Source of the DNA: Candidatus Hodarchaeota archaeon
GTDB lineage: Archaea > Asgardarchaeota > Heimdallarchaeia > Hodarchaeales > Hodarchaeaceae
NCBI GenBank assembly: GCA_016840035.1
Contig: JAEOTC010000011.1
Coordinates: 1 to 11,836, forward strand
Direction of reading: 5' to 3'
DNA length: 11,836 bases
Below the pieces are notes generated by a model. The model was not told where the DNA came from, did not search any database, and worked only from the letters and a program-made list of their open reading frames with translations. Positions 976 to 11,836 of the stretch are shown here, piece by piece. Positions within the stretch are counted from its first letter, which is position 1. The number at the start of each line of letters is the position of its first letter. The translations under genes and the position numbers were made by a program.

Positions 976-1527
976 TCATTGAATGGTAAGAATGGCCTCT
1001 CCTATGGATTGTTCTAAACCCTTTTTTGTTTCCGTTTCAGTAACTTGGATAATTGTTTCCATCTTTGAAGAATAACGGCCATAGTCAGGGTGCGCTTCAC
1101 TATCAACAGAAAAAATAACAGCTACCGCGGGGTTATCGGGGTCATCGGGGTCATCAAGCTGAACTCGACCAATCCATAATGGAGTAGAACTTATAGTGGG
1201 TCGTGAAGAAAGTGACTTTGCTATATTTCGTAATAGTACGTGGGCTGTTTTACCTACAAGCATAATCCTGCGGATTTGGCTATCAATTCTTAGCAGTCCT
1301 TTCGTTTTTGTTTTTCGTTTTTCATAAGAAAATTCTTGAAGTCTGCTTGTTGTGTTAATAGAACGCTTTTTTTTCTGAGTAAGAGTGTCGAGAATTGCAT
1401 AAACTCTATTTCTTGTTACATCTAACTCTTTCGCTATGAACTCAGTGTCTTTTCCTTCGATGAAAAATTCAAGAACTTTTGACTCTTTTTCAGTCAAAAA
1501 TGTATCTTTAATCCACATACTTGACAT
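976..1527 (-). CDS. HTH DNA-binding protein / transcriptional regulator (Tfx- or LuxR/GerE-like N-terminal HTH)
   Basis: FLTEKESKVLEFFIEGKDTEFIAKELDVTRNRVYAIL fits the LT-x-(R/K)E-x-x-VL...G....IA.EL..T...V HTH pattern. Start moved from the ORF-track 1707 to ATG 1527 (or 1518), because the extra 60 aa largely translate a 66-bp AT-rich tandem repeat; a GGTG SD-like motif precedes ATG 1527. Confidence 0.8.
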   Translation of the reverse strand: MSSMWIKDTFLTEKESKVLEFFIEGKDTEFIAKELDVTRNRVYAILDTLTQKKKRSINTTSRLQEFSYEKRKTKTKGLLRIDSQIRRIMLVGKTAHVLLRNIAKSLSSRPTISSTPLWIGRVQLDDPDDPDNPAVAVIFSVDSEAHPDYGRYSSKMETIIQVTETETKKGLEQSIGEAILTIQ

Positions 1528-1662
1528 TCCTAAAGCACCACTTAATATCAGAATATTAGAATACATAAACGTTTGTAATAAAATATTAATAATTCCTAAA
1601 GCACCGCTTAATATCAGAATATTACTATATATAAATGTTTGTAATAAAACATTAATAATTCC
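1526..1662. repeat. 66-bp tandem duplication (2 copies + 5 bp) in the divergent intergenic region
   Basis: Unit attcctaaagcacc(a/g)cttaatatcagaatatta...ataaa(c/t)gtttgtaataaaa(t/c)attaata starts at 1526 and 1592; attcc recurs at 1658. Confidence 0.95.
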
Positions 1663-1668
1663 ATTTCC

Positions 1669-1690
1669 AACATATAATATATTATATGTT
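1669..1690. promoter_or_regulatory. Perfect 22-bp palindrome, candidate operator
   Basis: AACATATAATATATTATATGTT is its own reverse complement. It lies between the divergent HTH gene and the 1746 ORF. The operator role is inferred. Confidence 0.6.
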
Positions 1691-1745
1691 ATAAAGAGGG
1701 GAAACATTTTTATCTATTCAATACTATGTTATTACATGAGTTGAA

Positions 1746-2234: not shown

Positions 2235-2340
2235 TGTGGAAAACGAGTAATGTTAGAAAATACTATCGTCAGGTGGCTTGAGGAGCGTAATTCTTTGAGG
2301 TTGAGTGTTTCGGTCTGATGTCTGTCTTTTTAATTTTCGG
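2235..2340 (+). repeat. Inter-gene direct repeat copy (lacks the 5' tgccac...cacgggct part)
   Basis: tgtggaaaacgagta...ctatcgtcaggtggcttgaggagcgtaattctttgagg...tttcggtctgatgtctgtctttttaattttcgg aligns with the copies at 3497, 4531, 5161 and 8981. Confidence 0.95.
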
Positions 2341-2373
2341 TGATCTAAAAGTCCTGAAATGTCTTGACCAACT

Positions 2374-3321
2374 TCAAATGCGTATTCTCTTGTTTTGTCT
2401 TCTTTGAGGAATCATAATGAGTGCTACTACACTCATCGCAACCACCACAGGAAGAAGCATGAGGGGCGTTTCTTCCGTGGTCGTCATGGTTGTGGTAATC
2501 GTTGTGGTTGTGGTCGTTGTAGTGGTAGTTGGTTGAGTAGTTGTGGTCGTGGGTGGGTGCGGGTCATCCACTGCTGTTTTCACCAGTCCATACACGGCCT
2601 CATCCTGATATAGATCAGAATGAAATAGATTTTCAACCTCTATATTATGTGCTCCGTCAAGTGGAGAAGATATATATGAGACCCACTCATCATCTCGACT
2701 ATAAATGGATGTATAATTGATAGTTCCTGGAATATGAGTACTGTTATAGATAATTCCCGAAATAGGATCTGTCCGATTCCCTAGAGTATCGTTTAAAATA
2801 CCCCCTGGAGTTTCATCCCCTTCGTTCATACTTGATGCCCATGGAAGATAATCAGGACATGAAGTATAACGAGAGGGAATATCCCCATGATGATCAGCCC
2901 CCAAACTCGCATAATCATCAACCTTATCTATCCCCCCCAAATATTTGATATAATACCTGCTACTCAATCCGCCCATACTATGTCCGACAAGATCAATTTT
3001 TTCCGCACCAGTGTCATTTAAAATGGTGTCTACCCATTGTTTTATCCTATTGGCATTGTTTATATTTGCTTGAACATCACAATTACTCCTATCATCAAAA
3101 TTATAGGCATAGAGAGCTGTCTCCAGCCATCCATCAGCTTTGAACCACTCTTTCATGGTGACCCAATCCATCATGCTTTTCGTCCATCCATGAAGAAATA
3201 AGATTGGATTATGGTCTTGTGACTCTTTAATTTTCGTTGTGCTGGCCTTAACACCGACAAAACAGGGTGAGATTAGAATTATCGTTACTACGATTAATAT
3301 CGCCTTATTTCGTCCACTCAC
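2374..3321 (-). CDS. Secreted, C-terminally anchored alpha/beta-hydrolase (Lipase_2 / LipA-like lipase-esterase)
   Basis: Signal peptide; oxyanion motif PILFLHGW; nucleophile elbow DLVGHSMGG; candidate Asp (YSRDD) and His (FHSDL); poly-Thr linker (2476-2550), TM helix and basic tail. Confidence 0.93.
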   Translation of the reverse strand: MSGRNKAILIVVTIILISPCFVGVKASTTKIKESQDHNPILFLHGWTKSMMDWVTMKEWFKADGWLETALYAYNFDDRSNCDVQANINNANRIKQWVDTILNDTGAEKIDLVGHSMGGLSSRYYIKYLGGIDKVDDYASLGADHHGDIPSRYTSCPDYLPWASSMNEGDETPGGILNDTLGNRTDPISGIIYNSTHIPGTINYTSIYSRDDEWVSYISSPLDGAHNIEVENLFHSDLYQDEAVYGLVKTAVDDPHPPTTTTTQPTTTTTTTTTTITTTMTTTEETPLMLLPVVVAMSVVALIMIPQRRQNKRIRI

Positions 3322-3496: not shown

Positions 3497-3639
3497 GCTG
3501 CCACTACTCGCACACGGGCTAATTGTCTATAAAATGGTGGAAAACGAGTATTGTCAAAAATCCTATCGTCAGTTGGCTTTAGGAGTGTAATTCTTCGAGT
3601 TGGAGTGTTTCGGTCTGGTGTCTGGTTTTTAGTTTTCGG
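3497..3639 (+). repeat. Inter-gene direct repeat, full-length copy
   Basis: gctgccactactcgcacacgggctaatt...gtggaaaacgagtatt...ctatcgtcagttggctttaggagtgtaattcttcgagttggagtgtttcggtctggtgtctggtttttagttttcgg. Confidence 0.95.
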
Positions 3640-3669
3640 AGAAGGTAAGTTTCAAATATTTGAATACTC

Positions 3670-4554
3670 ATGTCAATTGAAGTAGATCTCTTGGCACAAC
3701 CAGCTTTTACATATGACATTCAAAGATCTCCACCGCAACTGAACCCACTCTTTCAGCTCTTCTTCTTATGGGACCCACCTCCTTCATCCTATTCCATCCA
3801 TGATGACCGTGGGAATGACATTCTGATCATCCAACCGCTGAGTAAGAAAAGCATCAGGTTTGGGTGGCTTGTTGTTCGAAGGATTATCAGCTGGATTCTC
3901 CTCATTATCTTTTTTCAAGCCATTTTTGTCGTGATATCAAGTATCATGACTAATACTCCCACTCAGTTACTTGAATTAATCGCTCCAATACTTCCATTTA
4001 TCATACTCTTGTTTGGATTAGCAATACCTCAGTGGATTATAGGTAAATTCATTGGTGAATTTGAGAAATATCAACTCGTTCAAAGTCCTGATGGCACTCA
4101 GATGGGAGAAATAATAAAAACGGACTCTTTTGGAAACAAGTGGAAGATTTTAGACCCATTTAAGGAAAAGCATGCCAGTATATCGATATATGACCCCTCC
4201 CTCCGCATTTCAGGGAAGTACAGACAACTTAGAGAGGCTCAACTTCATACAGGAGAGGTACAAACAACTTTTGGCGTATACAAAGCAGAAGCGTCCTACC
4301 AAACTGAAAAACGCGGGGAGAAAAGGATTCAAAAAACTACTGAGTGCTCTATTACTGATTCAAATGACAATTTATCCTTCATAGTAAAATGGCTTGACTT
4401 TATAGAGTATTCCAAATCAGGAAGAGAATATAGAATTGATTCTTATGGGACTTTGACTCCTTTTCTTGTATGTTCAATATCTATTTGTTTAATTGAAAGG
4501 TTCCTCACTCGTTATCGTGAATATAGAATACCACGCCGGCCGGCTGGTATTTGA
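3670..4554 (+). CDS. Membrane protein with two TM helices and a possible LURP-one/scramblase (tubby-like) domain
   Basis: 294-aa ORF with two hydrophobic helices (approx. aa 72-125). Repeated 'Y/W-x-I-x-D-x-x-G' beta-hairpin motifs and the terminal EYRIDSYGTLTPFLVCSISICLIE strand-plus-helix are typical of LURP-one/scramblase folds. Recognised by pattern only. Confidence 0.7.
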   Translation: MSIEVDLLAQPAFTYDIQRSPPQLNPLFQLFFLWDPPPSSYSIHDDRGNDILIIQPLSKKSIRFGWLVVRRIISWILLIIFFQAIFVVISSIMTNTPTQLLELIAPILPFIILLFGLAIPQWIIGKFIGEFEKYQLVQSPDGTQMGEIIKTDSFGNKWKILDPFKEKHASISIYDPSLRISGKYRQLREAQLHTGEVQTTFGVYKAEASYQTEKRGEKRIQKTTECSITDSNDNLSFIVKWLDFIEYSKSGREYRIDSYGTLTPFLVCSISICLIERFLTRYREYRIPRRPAGI

Positions 4555-4656
4555 GAAAATTGTGGAAACTGAGTGGACCTATCGTCAGTTGGCTTTAGGA
4601 GTGTAATTCTTCGAGTAGGAGCGTGTCGGTCTGGCGTCTGGTTTTTTCCTTTTCGG
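4531..4656 (+). repeat. Inter-gene direct repeat copy; overlaps the stop codon of the upstream gene
   Basis: ggctggtatttgagaaaattgtggaaac...cctatcgtcagttggctttaggagtgtaattcttcgagtaggagcgtgtcggtctggcgtctggttttttccttttcgg; the 5' boundary is approximate. Confidence 0.92.
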
Positions 4657-4806
4657 AGCGAGAGTATTTGAATTCGTATGGGATAATTTTGGATATTCCC
4701 GCCCCTGTTGAACCTTTCTTCAAATTAGTAAGTTGAGTTATCCTGATAGAATTTTAAGGAGCTTTTGGTAAAACCTTATAAAAGTCAGTGATGCCCTTCA
4801 CATCCT

Positions 4807-5061
4807 ATGGCAAAAAAAAAGTATTACCTTTGTGTTATGTTTGTCGTTATTGGTCTGTTCCTCATCATTTCTGGTATCGTAGCATATGACCGTCGAATGG
4901 CTATGGATGGAAATACACGGGCAGCGACAAGAGCAAGAGATGAGCCCGCTTTCCTTGGATTATTCATTATTGGTGCATCTATTATCACTTCTCTAATAAT
5001 TTACTATGATGAACGCAGTAAGAAACAGTGGGAAGCACAGAAAACTTCTGGAAGCACTTGA
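4807..5061 (+). CDS. Small two-TM membrane protein
   Basis: 84 aa with a basic N-terminus and two hydrophobic helices. An aaaaccttataaa BRE/TATA-like motif lies about 30 nt upstream. Confidence 0.75.
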   Translation: MAKKKYYLCVMFVVIGLFLIISGIVAYDRRMAMDGNTRAATRARDEPAFLGLFIIGASIITSLIIYYDERSKKQWEAQKTSGST

Positions 5062-5160
5062 CGCTTGCAGAAAGTCCTGTATTGAGGTATTTTCCATTCA
5101 ATTTATATCATGTATTCCGATAACTAGTTACAGTGTAACCAATTGATCAGATCATTATGA

Positions 5161-5272
5161 ACGGGCTGATTATCAAATCATTGGGTAAAATTCTGAGAAA
5201 AATCTAGCATCAGTTGGTTTAGGAGCGTAAATCCTCGAGTAGGAGCAATTCGGTCTGATGTCTGCTTTTTCG
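5161..5272 (+). repeat. Inter-gene direct repeat, diverged copy overlapped by the 3' end of the 5219-5911 ORF
   Basis: acgggctgatt...tgagaaaaatctagcatcagttggtttaggagcgtaaatcctcgagtaggagcaattcggtctgatgtctgctttttcg. Confidence 0.9.
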
Positions 5273-5911
5273 TCTTTTAACCAAACCTCGTGTTGTAACA
5301 ATAGCCATGATGGGGGGAAATAGCTCAAATCCTGGACTTTTTAATCCCCCTGTTTCTGTGGTCAATTCTACCTCTCTGGTAACTTGGGAGTTATTTGTGG
5401 ATTTGAAATAATTGTAAGTTTTCCAACCAGTTTTCCAGTTCCATTTAGTGATGCTCTTCTGATGAAAGCTGCCATACTCTCCTTCAAGTTCATGAACAAT
5501 ATGATCTCCCTCTATAGAATAACCTTCCTGATCTTTATATTTTTCTTCCCAATAAGTCTTATTATCCGTTGTTTGACGAACTGCTTCCAGAAGTGACGTA
5601 TTTCTTGCGAATATAATTCCATTCATCTCAATGTTTCCATATACAATCGCATATTTAATTGACATAATTGTATATTTTACAGTTGATCCCTTTTGTAGTG
5701 TAATATTGAATTTATTTCCCTCTTCATCTGTTCCTTCTCGAATCTCTTGGTTATTTTTTGCTTTATCGATAAGTTTTGTATAAGTTAGCGTCAAAGTATC
5801 TCCTGCTTCAACTTTCCATTCGAAATTTTCCTTAGAAACACCCGCTATAACTATTTTCAAGAGTCCTAACCACATTATTATAATAACTAACCATATCAAT
5901 TTCTTTTTCAA
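5219..5911 (-). CDS. Secreted/surface protein with a degenerate PGF-CTERM-like tail
   Basis: TTG start with GAGGAGGT SD just upstream; MKKK plus hydrophobic signal peptide; C-terminal SPGFE-hydrophobic-KRRK. The last ~16 codons are read through the repeat. Confidence 0.85.
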   Translation of the reverse strand: MKKKLIWLVIIIMWLGLLKIVIAGVSKENFEWKVEAGDTLTLTYTKLIDKAKNNQEIREGTDEEGNKFNITLQKGSTVKYTIMSIKYAIVYGNIEMNGIIFARNTSLLEAVRQTTDNKTYWEEKYKDQEGYSIEGDHIVHELEGEYGSFHQKSITKWNWKTGWKTYNYFKSTNNSQVTREVELTTETGGLKSPGFELFPPIMAIVTTRGLVKRRKSRHQTELLLLEDLRS

Positions 5912-6030
5912 TGGTAAACCTCCTCGAGGAAACAGTCATAAAGATTCATTTTCCTCCTTGCTTAAAAGGTTAGTTCCTATTGAGTAGGCCTCCCTTTGTT
6001 ATCGGTATTAGATAAGTGAATCACAAAATC

Positions 6031-6130
6031 GTTGCCACTAATCGCACTCGGACTTTTTTAAGAAAAATTTGAGACCATTGTGGACACCGAGTCTTTTCTA
6101 CAAATACTCTTGTCAGGTAGCTTTAATTTT
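6031..6130 (+). repeat. Inter-gene direct repeat, degenerate copy with internal deletion
   Basis: gttgccactaatcgcactcggact...tttgagaccattgtggacaccgagtctttt...aaatactcttgtcaggtagcttt matches the 5' half, then jumps directly to aatttt. Confidence 0.8.
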
Positions 6131-6233: not shown

Positions 6234-8924
6234 TTGAAACGCAAATTTAACCAAGGGATGAGTACTTTTCTTACTTTATTCCTAATTTTAATTGTCATGG
6301 TACGATTGGGGAGTGGAAACCTTACAATACAAGAAGGACCAAGTCCCGTTTCATCTACTGAGGGATTTCCAGAGGAAATTCCCCCTTTAAGTATTTGTGC
6401 ATATACTCCTCATGCTCCTATCGAGATTTCGTCGGATACTGAATTTAATGCTGTTTCGGCAAGTGGGACTGGTACGATTTCTGATCCGTATATTCTCGAG
6501 GGCTGGCAAATTACTTCTACGGACGCTTCTGGTATTAATATTCATGATACAACTGTCCATTTCATCATTCGCAATTGTTTGATAACTCCTGGCAGTGACC
6601 ATTATGCTATTACTATAACCAATGTGGCACCTGGAACAGCCACAATCACGAATACTACTGGCGGGATCTTCCTTCAGGACGCCTCTAATTCCACTGTTAC
6701 TCATAATTTCTGTAACCAACAAGGAAGGAATGGTATTGATCTTCAAAATAGTCCGAATTCCACCGTAGCTGGCAATATTTGTTCTCAAAATGGGGTAGGT
6801 GGCATTTACCGTTATAATTCTGGTTCTTCTTCGCTTATCAACAATAATTTCAACCATAACGGTGATTGTGGGGTCTGGCTTGATGGATTTTCGACTCATT
6901 GCCTACTGGTCAATAATACCTGCAATGGGAATTACCGTGGTTTGGAAATTAAATCCTCCGGCCATACTCGCATTCTTAATAATACCTGCAATGACAATTC
7001 TCAATCAGGGATTTGGTTGTGGGAGGGGAGTTCCTTCTCTACAATAGCTAATAATACGTGTCGAAAGAATAGGTATGGTATTCAGCTTACTCGAGAAGGG
7101 GCATGGGATCCATCCACTGATTGTTTGGTTAAGTGGAATTTCCTCCAAGAAAATATTGAGTACGGCGTGCATCTCCCTAGTGGTAGTGCTAATCATGTTC
7201 TTCACCACAATTCCTTTTTGAATAATGGTGGAGGAGCTTCATCGTCTCAAGCTTTTGATGCTGGATCCAATAATCAGTGGTATGACTCCTCGGTTAACGA
7301 AGGCAATTATTGGTCTGACTACTCTGGTACTGGAGCGTATCTAATTGATGGTAGCGCGAGTGCTACCGATCCTTTCCCCTTTCTTCTTACTCGTCCTGAG
7401 GTGGGCCTTGTGGGTTATTGGAGTTTTGACGAGGGGGCTGGTGATACTGCATATGATCGATCTGGTAATGGTAACTATGGGACGATTTATGGTGCTAGTT
7501 GGACGAATGGTATTTCAGGAACGGCTCTGGAATTCACTCAGGGAGATTGGGTGGATTGTGGTAATGATTCATGCTTTGATGTAGGTACTTTTACCATTCA
7601 GGCTTGGCTGTATATTTATGGGTCCACTGGAGGATGTCATCAAATCTTAGCTAAATATCAAAATGAGGATCAGGTATTAGACGATGCTTATGTGTTTGAG
7701 CTATGGACAGATTCCCAGACGCTTGTATTGACACTATGCCAAGATGGAGAACCCCATTGGGTTGAGTGTTTTTCTTCTGAGCAAATTAGCTTCAATAAAT
7801 GGACCTTTGTCACAGGAACTTATAATGGTTCTGTTATGAGAGTTTTCATAAATGGTAAGGAGACTGGGTCTTTTGAAACTACCATTCCGGTTCGTAATAC
7901 TTCTTCGCCGTTGGTGATTGGAACTCACTGTAATGATGACAGTGGTAACTTCAACGGCCGTATCGACGAAGTCCGTATTTACAACCGATCTTTAAGTGCG
8001 GAGGAAGTCTTGTCCCATTTTAGTGAATTTTCTGTCCATGAACCCATTTCTACGCAGACTGTAACTCAAACAGAGTCACCCTATGTGACAGAACCACCCC
8101 GGCGTGGTATACCCCTACCCTCGGCAAACTTCATGGAATCTCTTCTGATGCTCTTTATGCTTTTAATTCTTGGGGTAGGAGGCCTTGTTGGGTTTGCATT
8201 ATGGCGTGAGGGCCTGAGTAAGAGACCTACTTCAAGGTTTTCTTCTGAAAGTAAGCCCCCTTCCATCACCAAACAACCCTTCCCGAAAGATTCTTCCAGA
8301 ATCGAATCCGAACTTTTTGTTAGATCTTCCGATCTTCCCTCTTCAAAACCCTCCGCTCAACCATTAACACCCAAGCCTCTTGACCCAGCTGGTGTGTCAG
8401 ATTGGAAACCTATTAAGGGAGTATCCCCTGTATCATCCCCTATAGTACCCACAATTGACGATAAACGGGCCTTATTTTCCTCCATTCAGTACCGAGTTCA
8501 AGACATTATCTATGAGCAAAGTGAAACTGACTTTTTTGTCCGTCTTATTCCCTATTTTGGGTCAATTAAAGAGATGACGACTCAATTTGATCGTAATCAA
8601 ATCATAATGCGAGGTTGGTTGGAACAGCGAGACAAACGACTAATAAAGCTCGAGTTGAAAATTGATGAATCACCTACACAATTTTCTTATGACGAGCCAT
8701 GGCGGGATATTACTCTCATCGGAAATGAGGACGTTATTCAAGGAATTAAACAGCGTAGAGAAATCGCTAACCGATTGATTTCTCTCGGTACAGCACTTGT
8801 CAAAGTCGAATCCCCTCCAATAGGAAGAATTTGTATTCAAATAACCTCTCAGGAAAGCAAGGAAACAATTAACAATGCTTTCTTCCTGCTCCAAGAGCTC
8901 CAATCGTTTATAGACGATTTTTAA
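6234..8924 (+). CDS. Large single-pass surface protein: right-handed beta-helix (NosD/PbH1) + LamG-like jellyroll + TM + Pro/Ser-rich linker + cytoplasmic domain
   Basis: Signal peptide; HAPIEISSD..F...GTG...DPYILEG cap; N-rich repeats (NNTCN.N...GI.L); GNYWSDY terminator; GLVGYWSFDEG.G..AYD.SG.GN.G...FNGRIDEVRIYNRSLSAEEV Laminin_G_3 signature; TM LLMLFMLLILGVGGLVGFALW. The start may be TTG 6234 or ATG 6258. Confidence 0.93.
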   Translation: MKRKFNQGMSTFLTLFLILIVMVRLGSGNLTIQEGPSPVSSTEGFPEEIPPLSICAYTPHAPIEISSDTEFNAVSASGTGTISDPYILEGWQITSTDASGINIHDTTVHFIIRNCLITPGSDHYAITITNVAPGTATITNTTGGIFLQDASNSTVTHNFCNQQGRNGIDLQNSPNSTVAGNICSQNGVGGIYRYNSGSSSLINNNFNHNGDCGVWLDGFSTHCLLVNNTCNGNYRGLEIKSSGHTRILNNTCNDNSQSGIWLWEGSSFSTIANNTCRKNRYGIQLTREGAWDPSTDCLVKWNFLQENIEYGVHLPSGSANHVLHHNSFLNNGGGASSSQAFDAGSNNQWYDSSVNEGNYWSDYSGTGAYLIDGSASATDPFPFLLTRPEVGLVGYWSFDEGAGDTAYDRSGNGNYGTIYGASWTNGISGTALEFTQGDWVDCGNDSCFDVGTFTIQAWLYIYGSTGGCHQILAKYQNEDQVLDDAYVFELWTDSQTLVLTLCQDGEPHWVECFSSEQISFNKWTFVTGTYNGSVMRVFINGKETGSFETTIPVRNTSSPLVIGTHCNDDSGNFNGRIDEVRIYNRSLSAEEVLSHFSEFSVHEPISTQTVTQTESPYVTEPPRRGIPLPSANFMESLLMLFMLLILGVGGLVGFALWREGLSKRPTSRFSSESKPPSITKQPFPKDSSRIESELFVRSSDLPSSKPSAQPLTPKPLDPAGVSDWKPIKGVSPVSSPIVPTIDDKRALFSSIQYRVQDIIYEQSETDFFVRLIPYFGSIKEMTTQFDRNQIIMRGWLEQRDKRLIKLELKIDESPTQFSYDEPWRDITLIGNEDVIQGIKQRREIANRLISLGTALVKVESPPIGRICIQITSQESKETINNAFFLLQELQSFIDDF

Positions 8925-8980: not shown

Positions 8981-9120
8981 TTGCCACTAGTACACGGGCT
9001 AATTTTTGAGAAAATTGTGGAAAACGAGTATTTTGAGAAAAAACTATCGTCAGGTGGCTTGAGGAACGTAAATCTTCGCGTAGGGGTGTTTCTGTCTGAT
9101 GTCTGATTTTTAATTTTCGG
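8981..9120 (+). repeat. Inter-gene direct repeat, full-length copy (last in the window)
   Basis: ttgccactagtacacgggctaatttttgagaaaattgtggaaaacgagtatt...ctatcgtcaggtggcttgaggaacgtaaatcttcgcgtaggggtgtttctgtctgatgtctgatttttaattttcgg. Confidence 0.95.
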
Positions 9121-9323
9121 AAATCCAAAAGGCCTGAAATGTCTTGACCCACTTATTTGCGCTTTCTCTTGATTTGTCGTCTTTGAGGAATCAGGAGGAG
9201 TGTCACTACACTCATCGCCATCACCACAGGAATGAATGTCAGGGGAGCTTCTTCCGTGGTCGTCGTGGTTGTCGTTGTTGTGGTTGTGGTAGTTGTTGTA
9301 GTCGTTGATGTTGTAGTCGTTGT
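9121..9323. repeat. Diverged duplicate of 2341-2550 (3' flank, TM anchor and Thr linker of the lipase gene)
   Basis: Shared blocks cctgaaatgtcttgacc, tctttgaggaatca, actacactcatcgc and ttcttccgtggtcgtc. The proteins read EETPLMLLPVVVAMSVVALIMIPQRRQNKR vs EEAPLTFIPVVMAMSVVTLLLIPQRRQIKR. Confidence 0.92.
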
Positions 9324-9524
9324 CCTCTGTGGTTGGTAATAGATCCGTTGATCTACAATCGATTGATAAAAATCCTTGTTGCGTTTGATTTCTCCAATGA
9401 TGGTCTTCCCTTCGAAATCTCCTGCTTTTAACAGCGCATTTTCCACACGATATCCCAAATAGGTTAACTCAGCTGTAAGGATAGCGGGTTCTCGGTTGTC
9501 TATTCGAATGGTGTGATTCAACAT
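9153..9524 (-). pseudogene. Chimeric ORF: truncated ERCC4/XPF-like nuclease N-terminus fused in frame to a poly-Thr + TM anchor
   Basis: IRIDNRE...LG......L.AGDF......EIKRNKDFYQSIVDQRIYYQ resembles the ERCC4 D-x-RE / GD-xn-ERK-x3-D / S-I-x-D-x-R pattern but stops after ~67 aa. The remainder copies the lipase tail, and there is no signal peptide. Confidence 0.7.
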
Positions 9525-9988: not shown

Positions 9989-11539
9989 TCATTCTTTTAA
10001 CAAATTTGGGATTTTCCACTTTAACCTTGACACATTAAACCACTTAAAATCAAGATTAAGAGGATATTGTTTTCGTATTATTGAAATAACCGTCCATTTG
10101 AGATCATTTTTTATCCATTTTACGAGTTTAGGAGTTAATCGAGCCCATATATAGATGGATTTCTCCCCAGAATAAATTTCACTAAATGGTATTAAGTTCA
10201 AAAATCGTTCTAACTGAAAAAACGGGATTTTATGTAGAATAATGCAATGCAAATCGAGAGAGAAATCGTACACCAGTCGCCAAGGCACAAATCCTATTTG
10301 AACTACCTGATGATTGTAATGTAACTGTTTTAACAACCCGACCTCGGTTCTAGAGAGACGATTAGAATCCTGATTATCAATTAATCTTAATGGAAGGTTT
10401 GAGTATGAATACTCTGGAGGATTCTTACAATATAACTTAATTATCTCCTTGGGCAATTGATGCTGGCTATAATACCACTGGAGATTAAATTCGGGGGTAA
10501 TAAAAAAAGAGTTTTTCTCTCTTTGTCTTTTTTTTGGATTTTTTGATTGTAATAATTGAGTCAACCTACGAAGTTTTGTTGGGCTTAATTCAATCCAGCC
10601 AATATTCTCTTGATAATGGTTTAAAGAGATACATTTGCGTACAGTTGTGATTTTTGACAATTCTCTTAAGATAATGTACCCCTGACGTTCGCAATTCTGA
10701 AGATAGGATTCTAAACGGTCTATATCCTCAGTAGGTACCAATAGAATGGCAATATAATTATTTGGTACTTTTCTAAAGCTATATACATCACTAACTGTTA
10801 ATACCGTGTTTGCAGGATTACGAAAATCGATAACATCTTCCAACGAAGTGGATTCTTGTAGTTGAAACTGAAAAACCAACCGATTCAAACCAAAAGCGGG
10901 TGAAAAAAAAAGGAAAAACCATCGTCCATCCATTAGAGTGAAGAAACGAGTTAATTCTTCAGATGGCTTGTTTTTTTTCGGAAACACCACATTCTTGACA
11001 ATAACGGCCTTGAGCTTACGAGGATCCAAGGCATATACCCCGTCTTCTGTGATGAAGGAAAAAATAGTCTTTAATATCCTAAGTTGAACATTTGTAAGTG
11101 GAACAAGGAGTTTATCACATGAATACTGCAATTGTTCCCAAGCAAGATCTGTTAATGGAATACTTTCGCGAACAAGTCCATAAACTCCTGGAGTGGTAGA
11201 GCTACCACGCAAATATTTTGTCAAGTACTCATAGAATGAATTTGCGTGAAATGTTGAGACATTTAACAAAATATTCGCAGTTGAAAAATAACTTTCAATA
11301 AACCAAAGGAAAGCTGTGTTCAAGTATTTTTTCGTTCCTATAACTCTCTCATTGTACTCTATTAAACGCTGTGAGAGCTTGGTTCTTTGGTAGTCGGCCT
11401 CTTCATAATGTTGAAGGACTGAGAGGAATTCCATTAGTAAATATTGATCAGCTGGCGGATACTCCTCAATATGAGCTGGGAGCTGTTCAATAATGGTTTT
11501 GATAAAACGTTTAAAACTCTCTCGACCTGGCCGAACCAA
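9989..11539 (-). CDS. Hypothetical 516-aa soluble protein, possibly a degenerate winged-helix/Lrp-like regulator
   Basis: Long uninterrupted ORF with TTG start and GAGGAG upstream; no TM. LTNVQLRILKTI and FSPAFGLNRLVFQF loosely resemble wHTH helix 1 and the Lrp linker (weak). Confidence 0.75.
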   Translation of the reverse strand: MVRPGRESFKRFIKTIIEQLPAHIEEYPPADQYLLMEFLSVLQHYEEADYQRTKLSQRLIEYNERVIGTKKYLNTAFLWFIESYFSTANILLNVSTFHANSFYEYLTKYLRGSSTTPGVYGLVRESIPLTDLAWEQLQYSCDKLLVPLTNVQLRILKTIFSFITEDGVYALDPRKLKAVIVKNVVFPKKNKPSEELTRFFTLMDGRWFFLFFSPAFGLNRLVFQFQLQESTSLEDVIDFRNPANTVLTVSDVYSFRKVPNNYIAILLVPTEDIDRLESYLQNCERQGYIILRELSKITTVRKCISLNHYQENIGWIELSPTKLRRLTQLLQSKNPKKRQREKNSFFITPEFNLQWYYSQHQLPKEIIKLYCKNPPEYSYSNLPLRLIDNQDSNRLSRTEVGLLKQLHYNHQVVQIGFVPWRLVYDFSLDLHCIILHKIPFFQLERFLNLIPFSEIYSGEKSIYIWARLTPKLVKWIKNDLKWTVISIIRKQYPLNLDFKWFNVSRLKWKIPNLLKE

Positions 11540-11672: not shown

Positions 11673-11836
11673 GTGTTGGATTTGTGAGAGGAAGACGTTC
11701 TCAGTACGAGAGGAACGGGACGCCGGCGCCTCTAGTCTACGGGTTATCCGGAAGGGTACCGCCCGGCCGCCACGTGCCAAGCGATAAGTGCTGAATGCAT
11801 CTAAGCACGAAACGCACCTCGAAAAGACAAATCCAC
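11673..11836 (+). rRNA. rrl: 23S (LSU) rRNA domain VI segment (H94-H97, including the sarcin-ricin loop); runs off the window edge
   Basis: SRL AGTACGAGAGGAAC at 11703-11716 closed by cgttct/gggacg; GATAAGTGCTGAATGCATCTAAGCACGAAAC matches H97; tggatttgt (11677-11685) pairs perfectly with acaaatcca (11827-11835) as H94; sharp rise in GC. Confidence 0.93.

Follow-up and report, generated by a model that had tools for sequence, protein, structure and literature searches.

The locus described here raises the question of what a sequence of ~106 nt represents that recurs, always in the same orientation, between unrelated genes of a contig assigned to an Asgard archaeon, and how it came to lie there. 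The window, i.e. the whole stretch of DNA that was analysed, is one entire contig of 11.8 kb (C271) from a 4.3-Mb, 87%-complete metagenome-assembled genome. A preliminary description had taken the repeat for a long top-strand hairpin preserved by G-U-compatible substitutions, and hence for either a strand-specific folded substrate of single-stranded DNA (as with attC, IS200/IS605 or REP hairpins) or a structured RNA. The repeat itself is real, and to this extent the earlier observation was confirmed. Five full copies occurred in the window, all of them on the plus strand, together with partial copies at 43-83 and 6080-6125, and a sixth full copy was recorded on contig C142 of the same genome.

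The five copies were delimited with R1, a sequence-only model of the repeat that was also used to collect copies throughout the genus. Copy 1, the locus of the preliminary description, occupies 2236..2342 (plus strand, 101.7 bits), copy 2 3537..3641 (plus strand, 100.8 bits) and copy 5 9017..9122 (plus strand, 102.2 bits). Copy 3 (4562..4658, plus strand, 85.2 bits) is a short form devoid of the local hairpin hp2, and copy 4 (5184..5280, plus strand, 80.1 bits), which overlaps the end of ORF 5219-5911, is the most diverged one. Elements start with GTGGAAA and terminate with ATTTTCGG, and each full copy is followed by a T-run. The partial copy found on the plus strand at the contig start (43..83; cmsearch, R1 model positions 67-107, E 0.004) corresponds to the 3' end of the element, where GTCTAATGTCTG, the T-run and GATTTTCGG succeed one another. 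Rfam provided no family for the element, either with the whole window or with a 200-nt slice; the whole-window negatives are weak, since that run missed a 23S rRNA fragment which a short slice revealed. A tRNA scan of the window detected none. Coding readings of the repeat were discarded: one frame of the minus strand lacks stops in three copies and contains them in the other three, and a second one is open only via the T-poor strand and lacks a start codon.

In the window alone, the listed stem pairs of the proposed hairpin can be drawn in all five copies, and its (C/T)GTAA 'loop' is conserved in each of them. The same holds for the 6-bp middle stem, where CGTCAG or CATCAG faces CTGATG, CTGGTG or CTGGCG (5/5 window copies). 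Yet, among the 141 copies aligned across the genus, this stem was broken twice as often as it was kept compatible: 85 cells were broken, 40 displayed a one-sided compatible change and only 2 were changed on both sides. Copies from G017 (CTACTG) and G015 (CTAAT(A/C/T)), for instance, face an unchanged CGTCAG. The 26 pairs of the preliminary description were paired in 73.0% of the cells, against 72.9 +/- 0.3 for shuffled columns (168/500 shuffles scoring as high as the observed value). RNAalifold retained zero pairs from the 141 copies, and from 6 copies it returned a different and weak fold (-6.65 kcal/mol).

Folding energies were no more favourable. As plus-strand RNA, the five window copies gave z values of +1.19, -0.45, +1.45, -0.40 and +1.27 relative to dinucleotide shuffles, and the minus strand did no better against its own shuffles. 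With DNA parameters, only copy 4 (taken from 5166) folded well, with z -2.65 for one strand and -2.45 for the other; the remaining four were no better than shuffles on either strand. The G-T pairs had been claimed to work on the plus strand only. This strand is indeed more stable in absolute energy, but its shuffles are equally so, and the asymmetry is thus due to G+T composition. Because fold energies resembled those of shuffles and the deep alignment yielded no pairs, the long intramolecular hairpin is refuted, and a self-folding DNA substrate or structured RNA has become scarcely tenable, the more so as both of its arms pair with the 23S rRNA leader instead (see below). The local hairpin hp2 (AGTATTTT..AAAATACT) displayed weak covariation, with 27 cells changed on both sides against 20.7 +/- 3.1. 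Kinship with IS200/IS605 ends or REP/RAYT systems found no basis either: the repeat forms no stable short hairpin, neither a Y1 transposase nor a RAYT gene is present in the window, and full-length (long-form) copies are restricted to two small contigs of the window's genome, unlike a genome-wide spread. The latter distribution also led us to reject the repeat as a MITE or an IS end.

The nature of the repeat appeared from its native position: very probably, it duplicates the 3' trailer of 23S rRNA. On each of three independent contigs, the end of the Rfam model LSU_rRNA_archaea (position 2987) lies immediately 5' of an element. On G012:C44, 23S runs to 2089 and the element starts at 2090; on G018:C8 (minus strand), 23S runs to 9437 and the element covers 9434-9350; on metagenome contig SDBT01012223.1, which contains a complete 16S-23S operon including its 16S gene, 23S spans 10372-13473 and the element starts at 13474. 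These are the only three genuine 23S 3' ends that were available with their flanks. While native copies are directly 3' of the 23S gene, those of the window are preceded only by its own last ~25-45 nt.

Such 23S-derived modules were recognized ahead of the window copies, all on the plus strand. The one at 3497..3536 consists of the last ~25 nt of 23S rRNA (CCACTACTCGCACACGGGCTAA) and a variable palindrome, hp1, as established by nhmmer and by alignment with the three genuine 23S ends. Similar modules precede copy 3 (4521..4561, nhmmer E 3.7e-10) and copy 4 (5144..5183, nhmmer E 1.1e-4), and another one, with hp1 (AATTTT TGAG AAAATT), was detected by nhmmer and 23S alignment at 8981..9016, right before copy 5. 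A degenerate joint at 6027..6125 combines a module (CCACTAATCGCACTCGGACT..) with element positions 1-46 (nhmmer, R1 model and 23S alignment), and upstream of copy 1 the 23S-derived piece has shrunk to GAATCG TGTGG. The 23S terminus CCACTAATCGCACAAGGGCTAA matched the upstream modules at 20/22 (copy 3526) and 19/22 positions (joint 6027). Native position and terminus match together define the repeated unit as 'end of 23S plus 3' trailer'.

Within this unit, blocks CTATCGTCAG and TTCGGTCTGATGTCTG are near-invariant in ~140 copies, whereas the stretches between them are almost unalignable. Palindrome hp1 is found in array copies between GGGCTAA and GTGGAAA (window 3518-3536 and 8995-9016, as well as sites of G000:C159); its arms vary from copy to copy yet remain complementary, and genuine 23S ends display only ACC(GT) at this place. 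The sites upstream of most copies belong to a genome-wide family, all members of which face one way. Elsewhere in the window's genome, short-form sites made of GTGGAAATGGTCAGTCCTCTCG and a T-run resemble, on visual comparison, the initial portion of the trailer in other lineages, and on these sequence grounds they may be read as truncated members of the trailer family.

In its native context, the element is one strand of a pre-23S processing stem of the ordinary archaeal type. The trailer pairs along its length, over 46-78 bp, with the leader that precedes 23S in the 16S-23S spacer. Cofolding of the G014 leader gave -87.5 kcal/mol with the G014 copy on C59 (78 intermolecular bp, z -7.7) and -78.1 kcal/mol with that on C48 (68 bp, z -7.3). 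The corresponding values were -71.5 kcal/mol for the G018 leader and native trailer (68 bp, z -4.4), -62.3 kcal/mol for the G002 leader and a G002 copy (70 bp, z -3.4) and -69.0 kcal/mol for the SDBT leader and native trailer (46 bp, z -3.1). These z values refer to mononucleotide-shuffled trailers (15-40 shuffles each), and the trailers used for G014, G013 and G002 are array copies that are not proven native. Foreign-genome copies paired clearly less well with the G014 leader (-57 to -69); for the G018 and G002 leaders, the margin over the best foreign copy was small.

Leader and trailer have also changed in concert. RNAalifold applied to both strands from four genomes recovered 48 long-range pairs, 13 of which were changed on both sides, e.g. 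GGACCGC/GCGGACC versus GGACUGC/GCAGUCC or AAAA/UUUU versus CUCA/UGAG. The two arms of the supposed hairpin turned out to pair with separate parts of the leader: CGTCAG with GACG or GGCG, and GGTCTGATGTCTG with CAGACATCAGATCG in G014. Moreover, the conserved blocks of the element coincide with its leader-pairing segments. The strand-specific and wobble-tolerant look of the repeat thus results from trailer-leader pairing, without any internal hairpin. The earlier intuition of a pairing constraint on one RNA strand was sound in this respect, except that the partner is the 23S leader and not the other half of the repeat. The same pairing explains why the sequence of the joints is conserved on one strand only. 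A tempting but wrong structural reading can thereby be replaced by a testable one.

Close to the 23S ends, trailer GUGUG-G-AAA-UUUU lies opposite leader AAAA-GUACAC, with a bulge of 2-3 nt on the leader side. This leaves a helix of 4 bp (UUUU/AAAA; in G014, UGAG/CUCA) between the trailer bulge G-AAA and the leader bulge. With bulges of 2-3 and 3-5 nt, compared to 3 and 3 in the canonical bulge-helix-bulge, the topology fits, and by analogy the motif is a bulge-helix-bulge-like candidate site for splicing endonuclease and RtcB. In archaeal rRNA processing stems, EndA cuts the bulge-helix-bulge and RtcB joins the products (PMC7038931, PMC8339473, PMC12918454), and circular 16S and 23S transcripts have been described in Asgard archaea (PMC12918454; see also PMC7038931, PMC8339473). 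Termination of the operon transcript probably occurs at the T-rich tail. The likeness to known archaeal processing stems is manifold: they too lie 3' of 23S and pair with the leader over tens of bp with compensatory changes, and their two opposite-strand bulges around a 4-bp helix by the mature ends are matched in topology, if not in bulge size. Complementarity and compensatory changes were both found in G014, G018, G002 and SDBT. The difference is that, here, trailer strand and 23S terminus are present at cassette joints as tens of additional copies per genome. In these copies, nature offers a set of processing-stem strand variants on which the maturation of Asgard pre-rRNA could be studied.

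The rRNA operon of the window's genome is unassembled, its own leader was absent from the assembly, and a scan of metagenomes supplied eight leaders, all from other lineages. With foreign leaders, pairing of the window copies was moderate, z ranging from +0.8 to -4.5 for G018 and being close to 0 for SDBT; copy 3 with the G018 leader reached -67.9 kcal/mol over 64 bp (z -4.5). In G018 itself, significant pairing with the genome's own leader has been lost by many copies in the interior of the array (z 0 to -4.9), which implies that selection on inner copies is weak or absent. Since copies are complementary to the leader and each full one is closed by a T-run, they could be imagined as independent small RNAs, i.e. 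transcripts of ~100 nt ending at this run and acting as decoys or modulators of 23S leader processing, or on other targets. We consider this very improbable: the upstream region contains the 23S terminus instead of a conserved promoter-like block, many copies are truncated, and copy number varies from 0 to 34 across the species of a single genus.

The distribution of the element was informative at the genus level. It was present in 18/22 genomes, its copies were clustered in arrays, and all of them (141/141) shared a single direction per locus. Arrays of related genomes begin at the end of the 23S gene; the one on G018:C8 comprises more than 20 copies over ~47 kb downstream of 23S. Copies sit exactly where gene content changes, and the genes between them differ among genomes. 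The window copies are joints of an accessory-gene cassette array that has the same direction as 23S. Searches against fetched arrays by BLAST showed that window cassettes occur in other genomes with different neighbours. In two cases the similarity continued rightward past the element, namely between copies 2236 and 9017 and between copy 5184 and G004:C112.

In the window, successive copies enclose one or two genes that are unrelated and lie on either strand. A class-2 lipase or alpha-beta hydrolase (2374..3321, minus strand; Pfam Lipase_2, E 5.3e-15) carries a Thr-rich linker and a C-terminal membrane anchor. It is followed by a 294-aa membrane protein (3670..4554, plus strand) with no family above threshold, an 84-aa protein with two membrane helices taken from the ORF list (4807..5061, plus strand) and a 230-aa surface protein (5219..5911, minus strand) with a Heimdall-CTERM-like tail, the profile match being weak though consistent with an Asgard origin. 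The gene of this surface protein also adjoins an element copy in G004:C112, with 81% DNA identity. Further on are found an 896-aa protein combining a right-handed beta-helix (Pfam Beta_helix, E 3.5e-46) with a LamG-like domain (Laminin_G_3, E 4.7e-26) at 6234..8924 (plus strand), a 123-aa protein in which an ERCC4-like piece is fused to a lipase-type Thr-rich anchor (9153..9524, minus strand), and a 516-aa protein of a multicopy family (9989..11539, minus strand).

Several features of these genes deserve mention on their own. A second copy of the lipase segment comprising Thr-rich linker, membrane helix and basic tail was recorded (2379-2558 versus 9158-9337, 77% identity), and homologues of the ERCC4-like fragment are free-standing in G005, G004 and G018. 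Two tandem units of 66 nt (1526-1657, 91% identity) belong to the 5' part of a gene (976-1707, minus strand) that encodes a Tfx/LuxR-type helix-turn-helix protein. All genomes of the genus (22/22) contain the 516-aa family, in 1-10 diverged copies that are frequently located on array contigs. Pfam, NCBIfam and PHROG searches with the window member returned no hits; its AlphaFold model (pLDDT 79.7), for which siroheme decarboxylase NirDL was the best match (E 5.6e-5), resembles tandem Lrp/AsnC-like modules (helix-turn-helix plus ferredoxin-like). The protein was considered as a recombinase and rejected, because its model is of the Lrp/AsnC type and, among the loci checked, only about one third have it within 1.5 kb of a joint.

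A possible route from 23S trailer to cassette joint is suggested by duplications. In G012, a second copy of the terminal ~33-60 nt of 23S and of the whole trailer is situated 3.7 kb downstream (87% identity). This direct repeat of 190 nt encloses a 3.6-kb insert with three unrelated ORFs. Longer pieces of 23S were encountered as well. The right end of the window (11674..11836, plus strand, running to the contig end) is a 23S rRNA 3' fragment of the sarcin-ricin loop region, oriented like the repeats (LSU_rRNA_archaea, model 2721-2883, 147.7 bits, E 6.8e-45), and the last 166 window bases recur within arrays of many genomes as judged by BLAST against the fetched arrays. Fragments extending from model position 2721 to the 23S end, with an intact sarcin-ricin loop, were present inside arrays of several genomes (G000:C162:4226-4591; L042 1867-2169; L058 257-566; L041 ~2760-3081). 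They have a common left boundary, ACGTGTTGGAT (model 2721), and different DNA leftward of it, a configuration suggestive of another exchange point, at a fixed position within the 23S gene. Altogether, 23S-derived sequence ahead of copies measures from 7 to ~330 nt. The leader, for its part, is single-copy; only the trailer side was multiplied, and no leader copies by which each cassette would form its own stem were found inside arrays.

A spare tRNA 3' half accompanies elements that integrate in tRNA genes, and a comparable logic would account for the present arrays. The explanation that we prefer, and hold to be somewhat better than an even bet, is that joints are 23S-trailer copies left by DNA inserting at the 23S end with a replacement trailer. 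Recombination of incoming DNA would take place in the 3'-terminal part of the 23S gene, either around model position 2721 or at the extreme end. Since this DNA would carry its own 23S end and trailer, the gene would stay whole and its transcript could still be processed, while each older trailer would be displaced downstream and persist as a joint. Repeated insertions would then build arrays of tens of kilobases in which joints are fossil rRNA trailers. For insertion with replacement as a mechanism, the chances appear roughly balanced. That the 23S 3' end anchors a gene-capture array, into which packets of accessory genes bearing their own 23S end and trailer were serially inserted, is a tentative proposal that we place a little short of even. 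It has the merit of being predictive, as new genes should enter at the 23S end. It would also give cassette arrays a concrete origin and an anchor point, the repeat units that partition variable gene islands being derived from the 23S end and its processing stem.

The same arrays could conceivably have arisen as neutral relics, that is leftovers of duplication or homologous recombination at the 3' end of the rRNA operon with no present role. The loss of significant leader pairing by many inner copies of G018 fits this possibility, as do the frequency of truncated copies, the lack of a linked recombinase and the variable length of 23S-derived sequence (7 to ~330 nt), which decay or unequal crossover would also produce. 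In this case, the conserved blocks would merely mirror the conservation of the native trailers from which they were copied, a corollary that, like the relic scenario itself, we rate as unlikely. Indeed, the near-invariance of CTATCGTCAG and TTCGGTCTGATGTCTG amid almost unalignable stretches and the constant placement of copies at changes of gene content, always one way, are not what neutral leftovers would lead one to expect. Likewise, two array copies of G014, with a similarity of only ~75% as estimated by eye, both retain 68-78 bp with the leader.

Insertion with a replacement trailer calls for an enzyme, and we infer that the host would supply it, the proposal amounting to gene shuffling on an rRNA gene with host enzymes and without integron parts. 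No recombinase gene was detected in the window (Pfam), in the G012 insert or on the array contigs. Matches to PF00589 occurred in 5 genomes, all on other contigs, with 2-3 tyrosine recombinases per genome. Such enzymes open the way to a further reading, in which the repeat comprises arm or accessory sites recognized by a recombinase encoded elsewhere, e.g. a host Xer-type one, and its likeness to the trailer is historical. The placement of copies between cassettes in one direction, reminiscent of integrons and dif modules, would agree with it, and so would hp1, which marks the border between 23S end and trailer in array copies and is absent from genuine 23S ends. Still, we regard a protein-recognized site as decidedly unlikely, given that the conserved blocks are the leader-pairing segments, that hp1 arms vary in sequence, unlike a fixed protein-binding site, and that the 106 nt contain no inverted arms resembling a binding site. 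Attempts at locating the crossover itself yielded no definite point: the ends of segments shared between genomes gave too blurred a distribution, and nearest-neighbour identities of element copies were not decisive. A search with a loose GGCT..ATT site pattern returned only noise.

Comparison with known systems helps to situate the insertion-with-replacement proposal. Integrative elements and genomic islands target the 3' region of tRNA or tmRNA genes, bringing along a replacement 3' segment. As in the present arrays, one end is occupied by an intact stable-RNA gene, the inserts are delimited by direct repeats of the 3' part of this gene, and accretion in tandem leads to several repeats in the same direction. 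The target is different here (23S rRNA plus its processing trailer), and inserts comprise one or two genes and carry no integrase. R1/R2 retrotransposons also use a large-subunit rRNA gene as landing place, but they interrupt the eukaryotic 28S gene and move by reverse transcription, whereas the 23S gene stays whole and the inserts are devoid of mobility genes. As regards the Xer/dif module (a 28-bp site with 11-nt inverted arms and a 6-nt spacer), only the variable short palindrome hp1 was seen that might be compared with it.

The attC comparison made in the preliminary description was apt as far as arrangement is concerned, since integron arrays also contain ~100-nt sites in one direction between unrelated and mostly single-gene cassettes, with contents that differ between relatives. 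It fails for the sites themselves: there is no hairpin, sequence rather than structure is conserved, and the RYYYAAC ... GTTRRRY end boxes are absent, GTTAGAA being encountered only in copy 2236. Neither is there an IntI, and the anchor is an rRNA gene instead of an attI with its Pc promoter. Integrons and integrase-less CALINs were reported in Archaea by Ghaly et al. 2022 (PMC9668308), and among Asgard mobile elements one is inserted beside a 16S gene (PMC8813620). In a limited search of the literature, we found no description of cassette arrays bounded by rRNA trailers.

Repeats of this kind, together with 23S fragments, would explain why assemblies break at rRNA operons and islands. The 'single-contig' genomes G010 and G008 are in fact scaffolds with 100-N joins (L062 2604-2703; L061 590-689; L078 1539-1638; L075 2901-3000), and the L062 gap directly adjoins an element copy; the repeats may thus break assemblies.

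Some rRNA loci of the dataset were themselves unusual. On contig C9 of G018 (L077 1695-3919), the 16S gene spans 2225 nt against 1478 positions in the model, which indicates an insertion or intron of ~750 nt. In four metagenome contigs, the 23S 3' end is joined head-to-tail to a 23S 5' start (L092 1-160; L093 2672-2806, minus strand; L097 1-347; L098 1151-1305, minus strand). The link is a 45-nt stem-loop (GTGTGGAAATTTTCAGTCCTCTCG TAAG AAAGGACTGCTAAAAGTACAC) with a bulge-helix-bulge-like motif, and L097 and L093 continue to model position 2678/2679. To judge from these sequences, some relatives may possess 23S genes in tandem or in circularly permuted form. Finally, G014:C57 (L112 1900-2095) holds a second and much more diverged 23S gene, possibly a contaminant. 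It has an unrelated trailer of its own (..CAGTTACACAGGTTGCGTATAATA..) which is repeated ~120 nt downstream, so that trailer duplication may not be limited to this genus.
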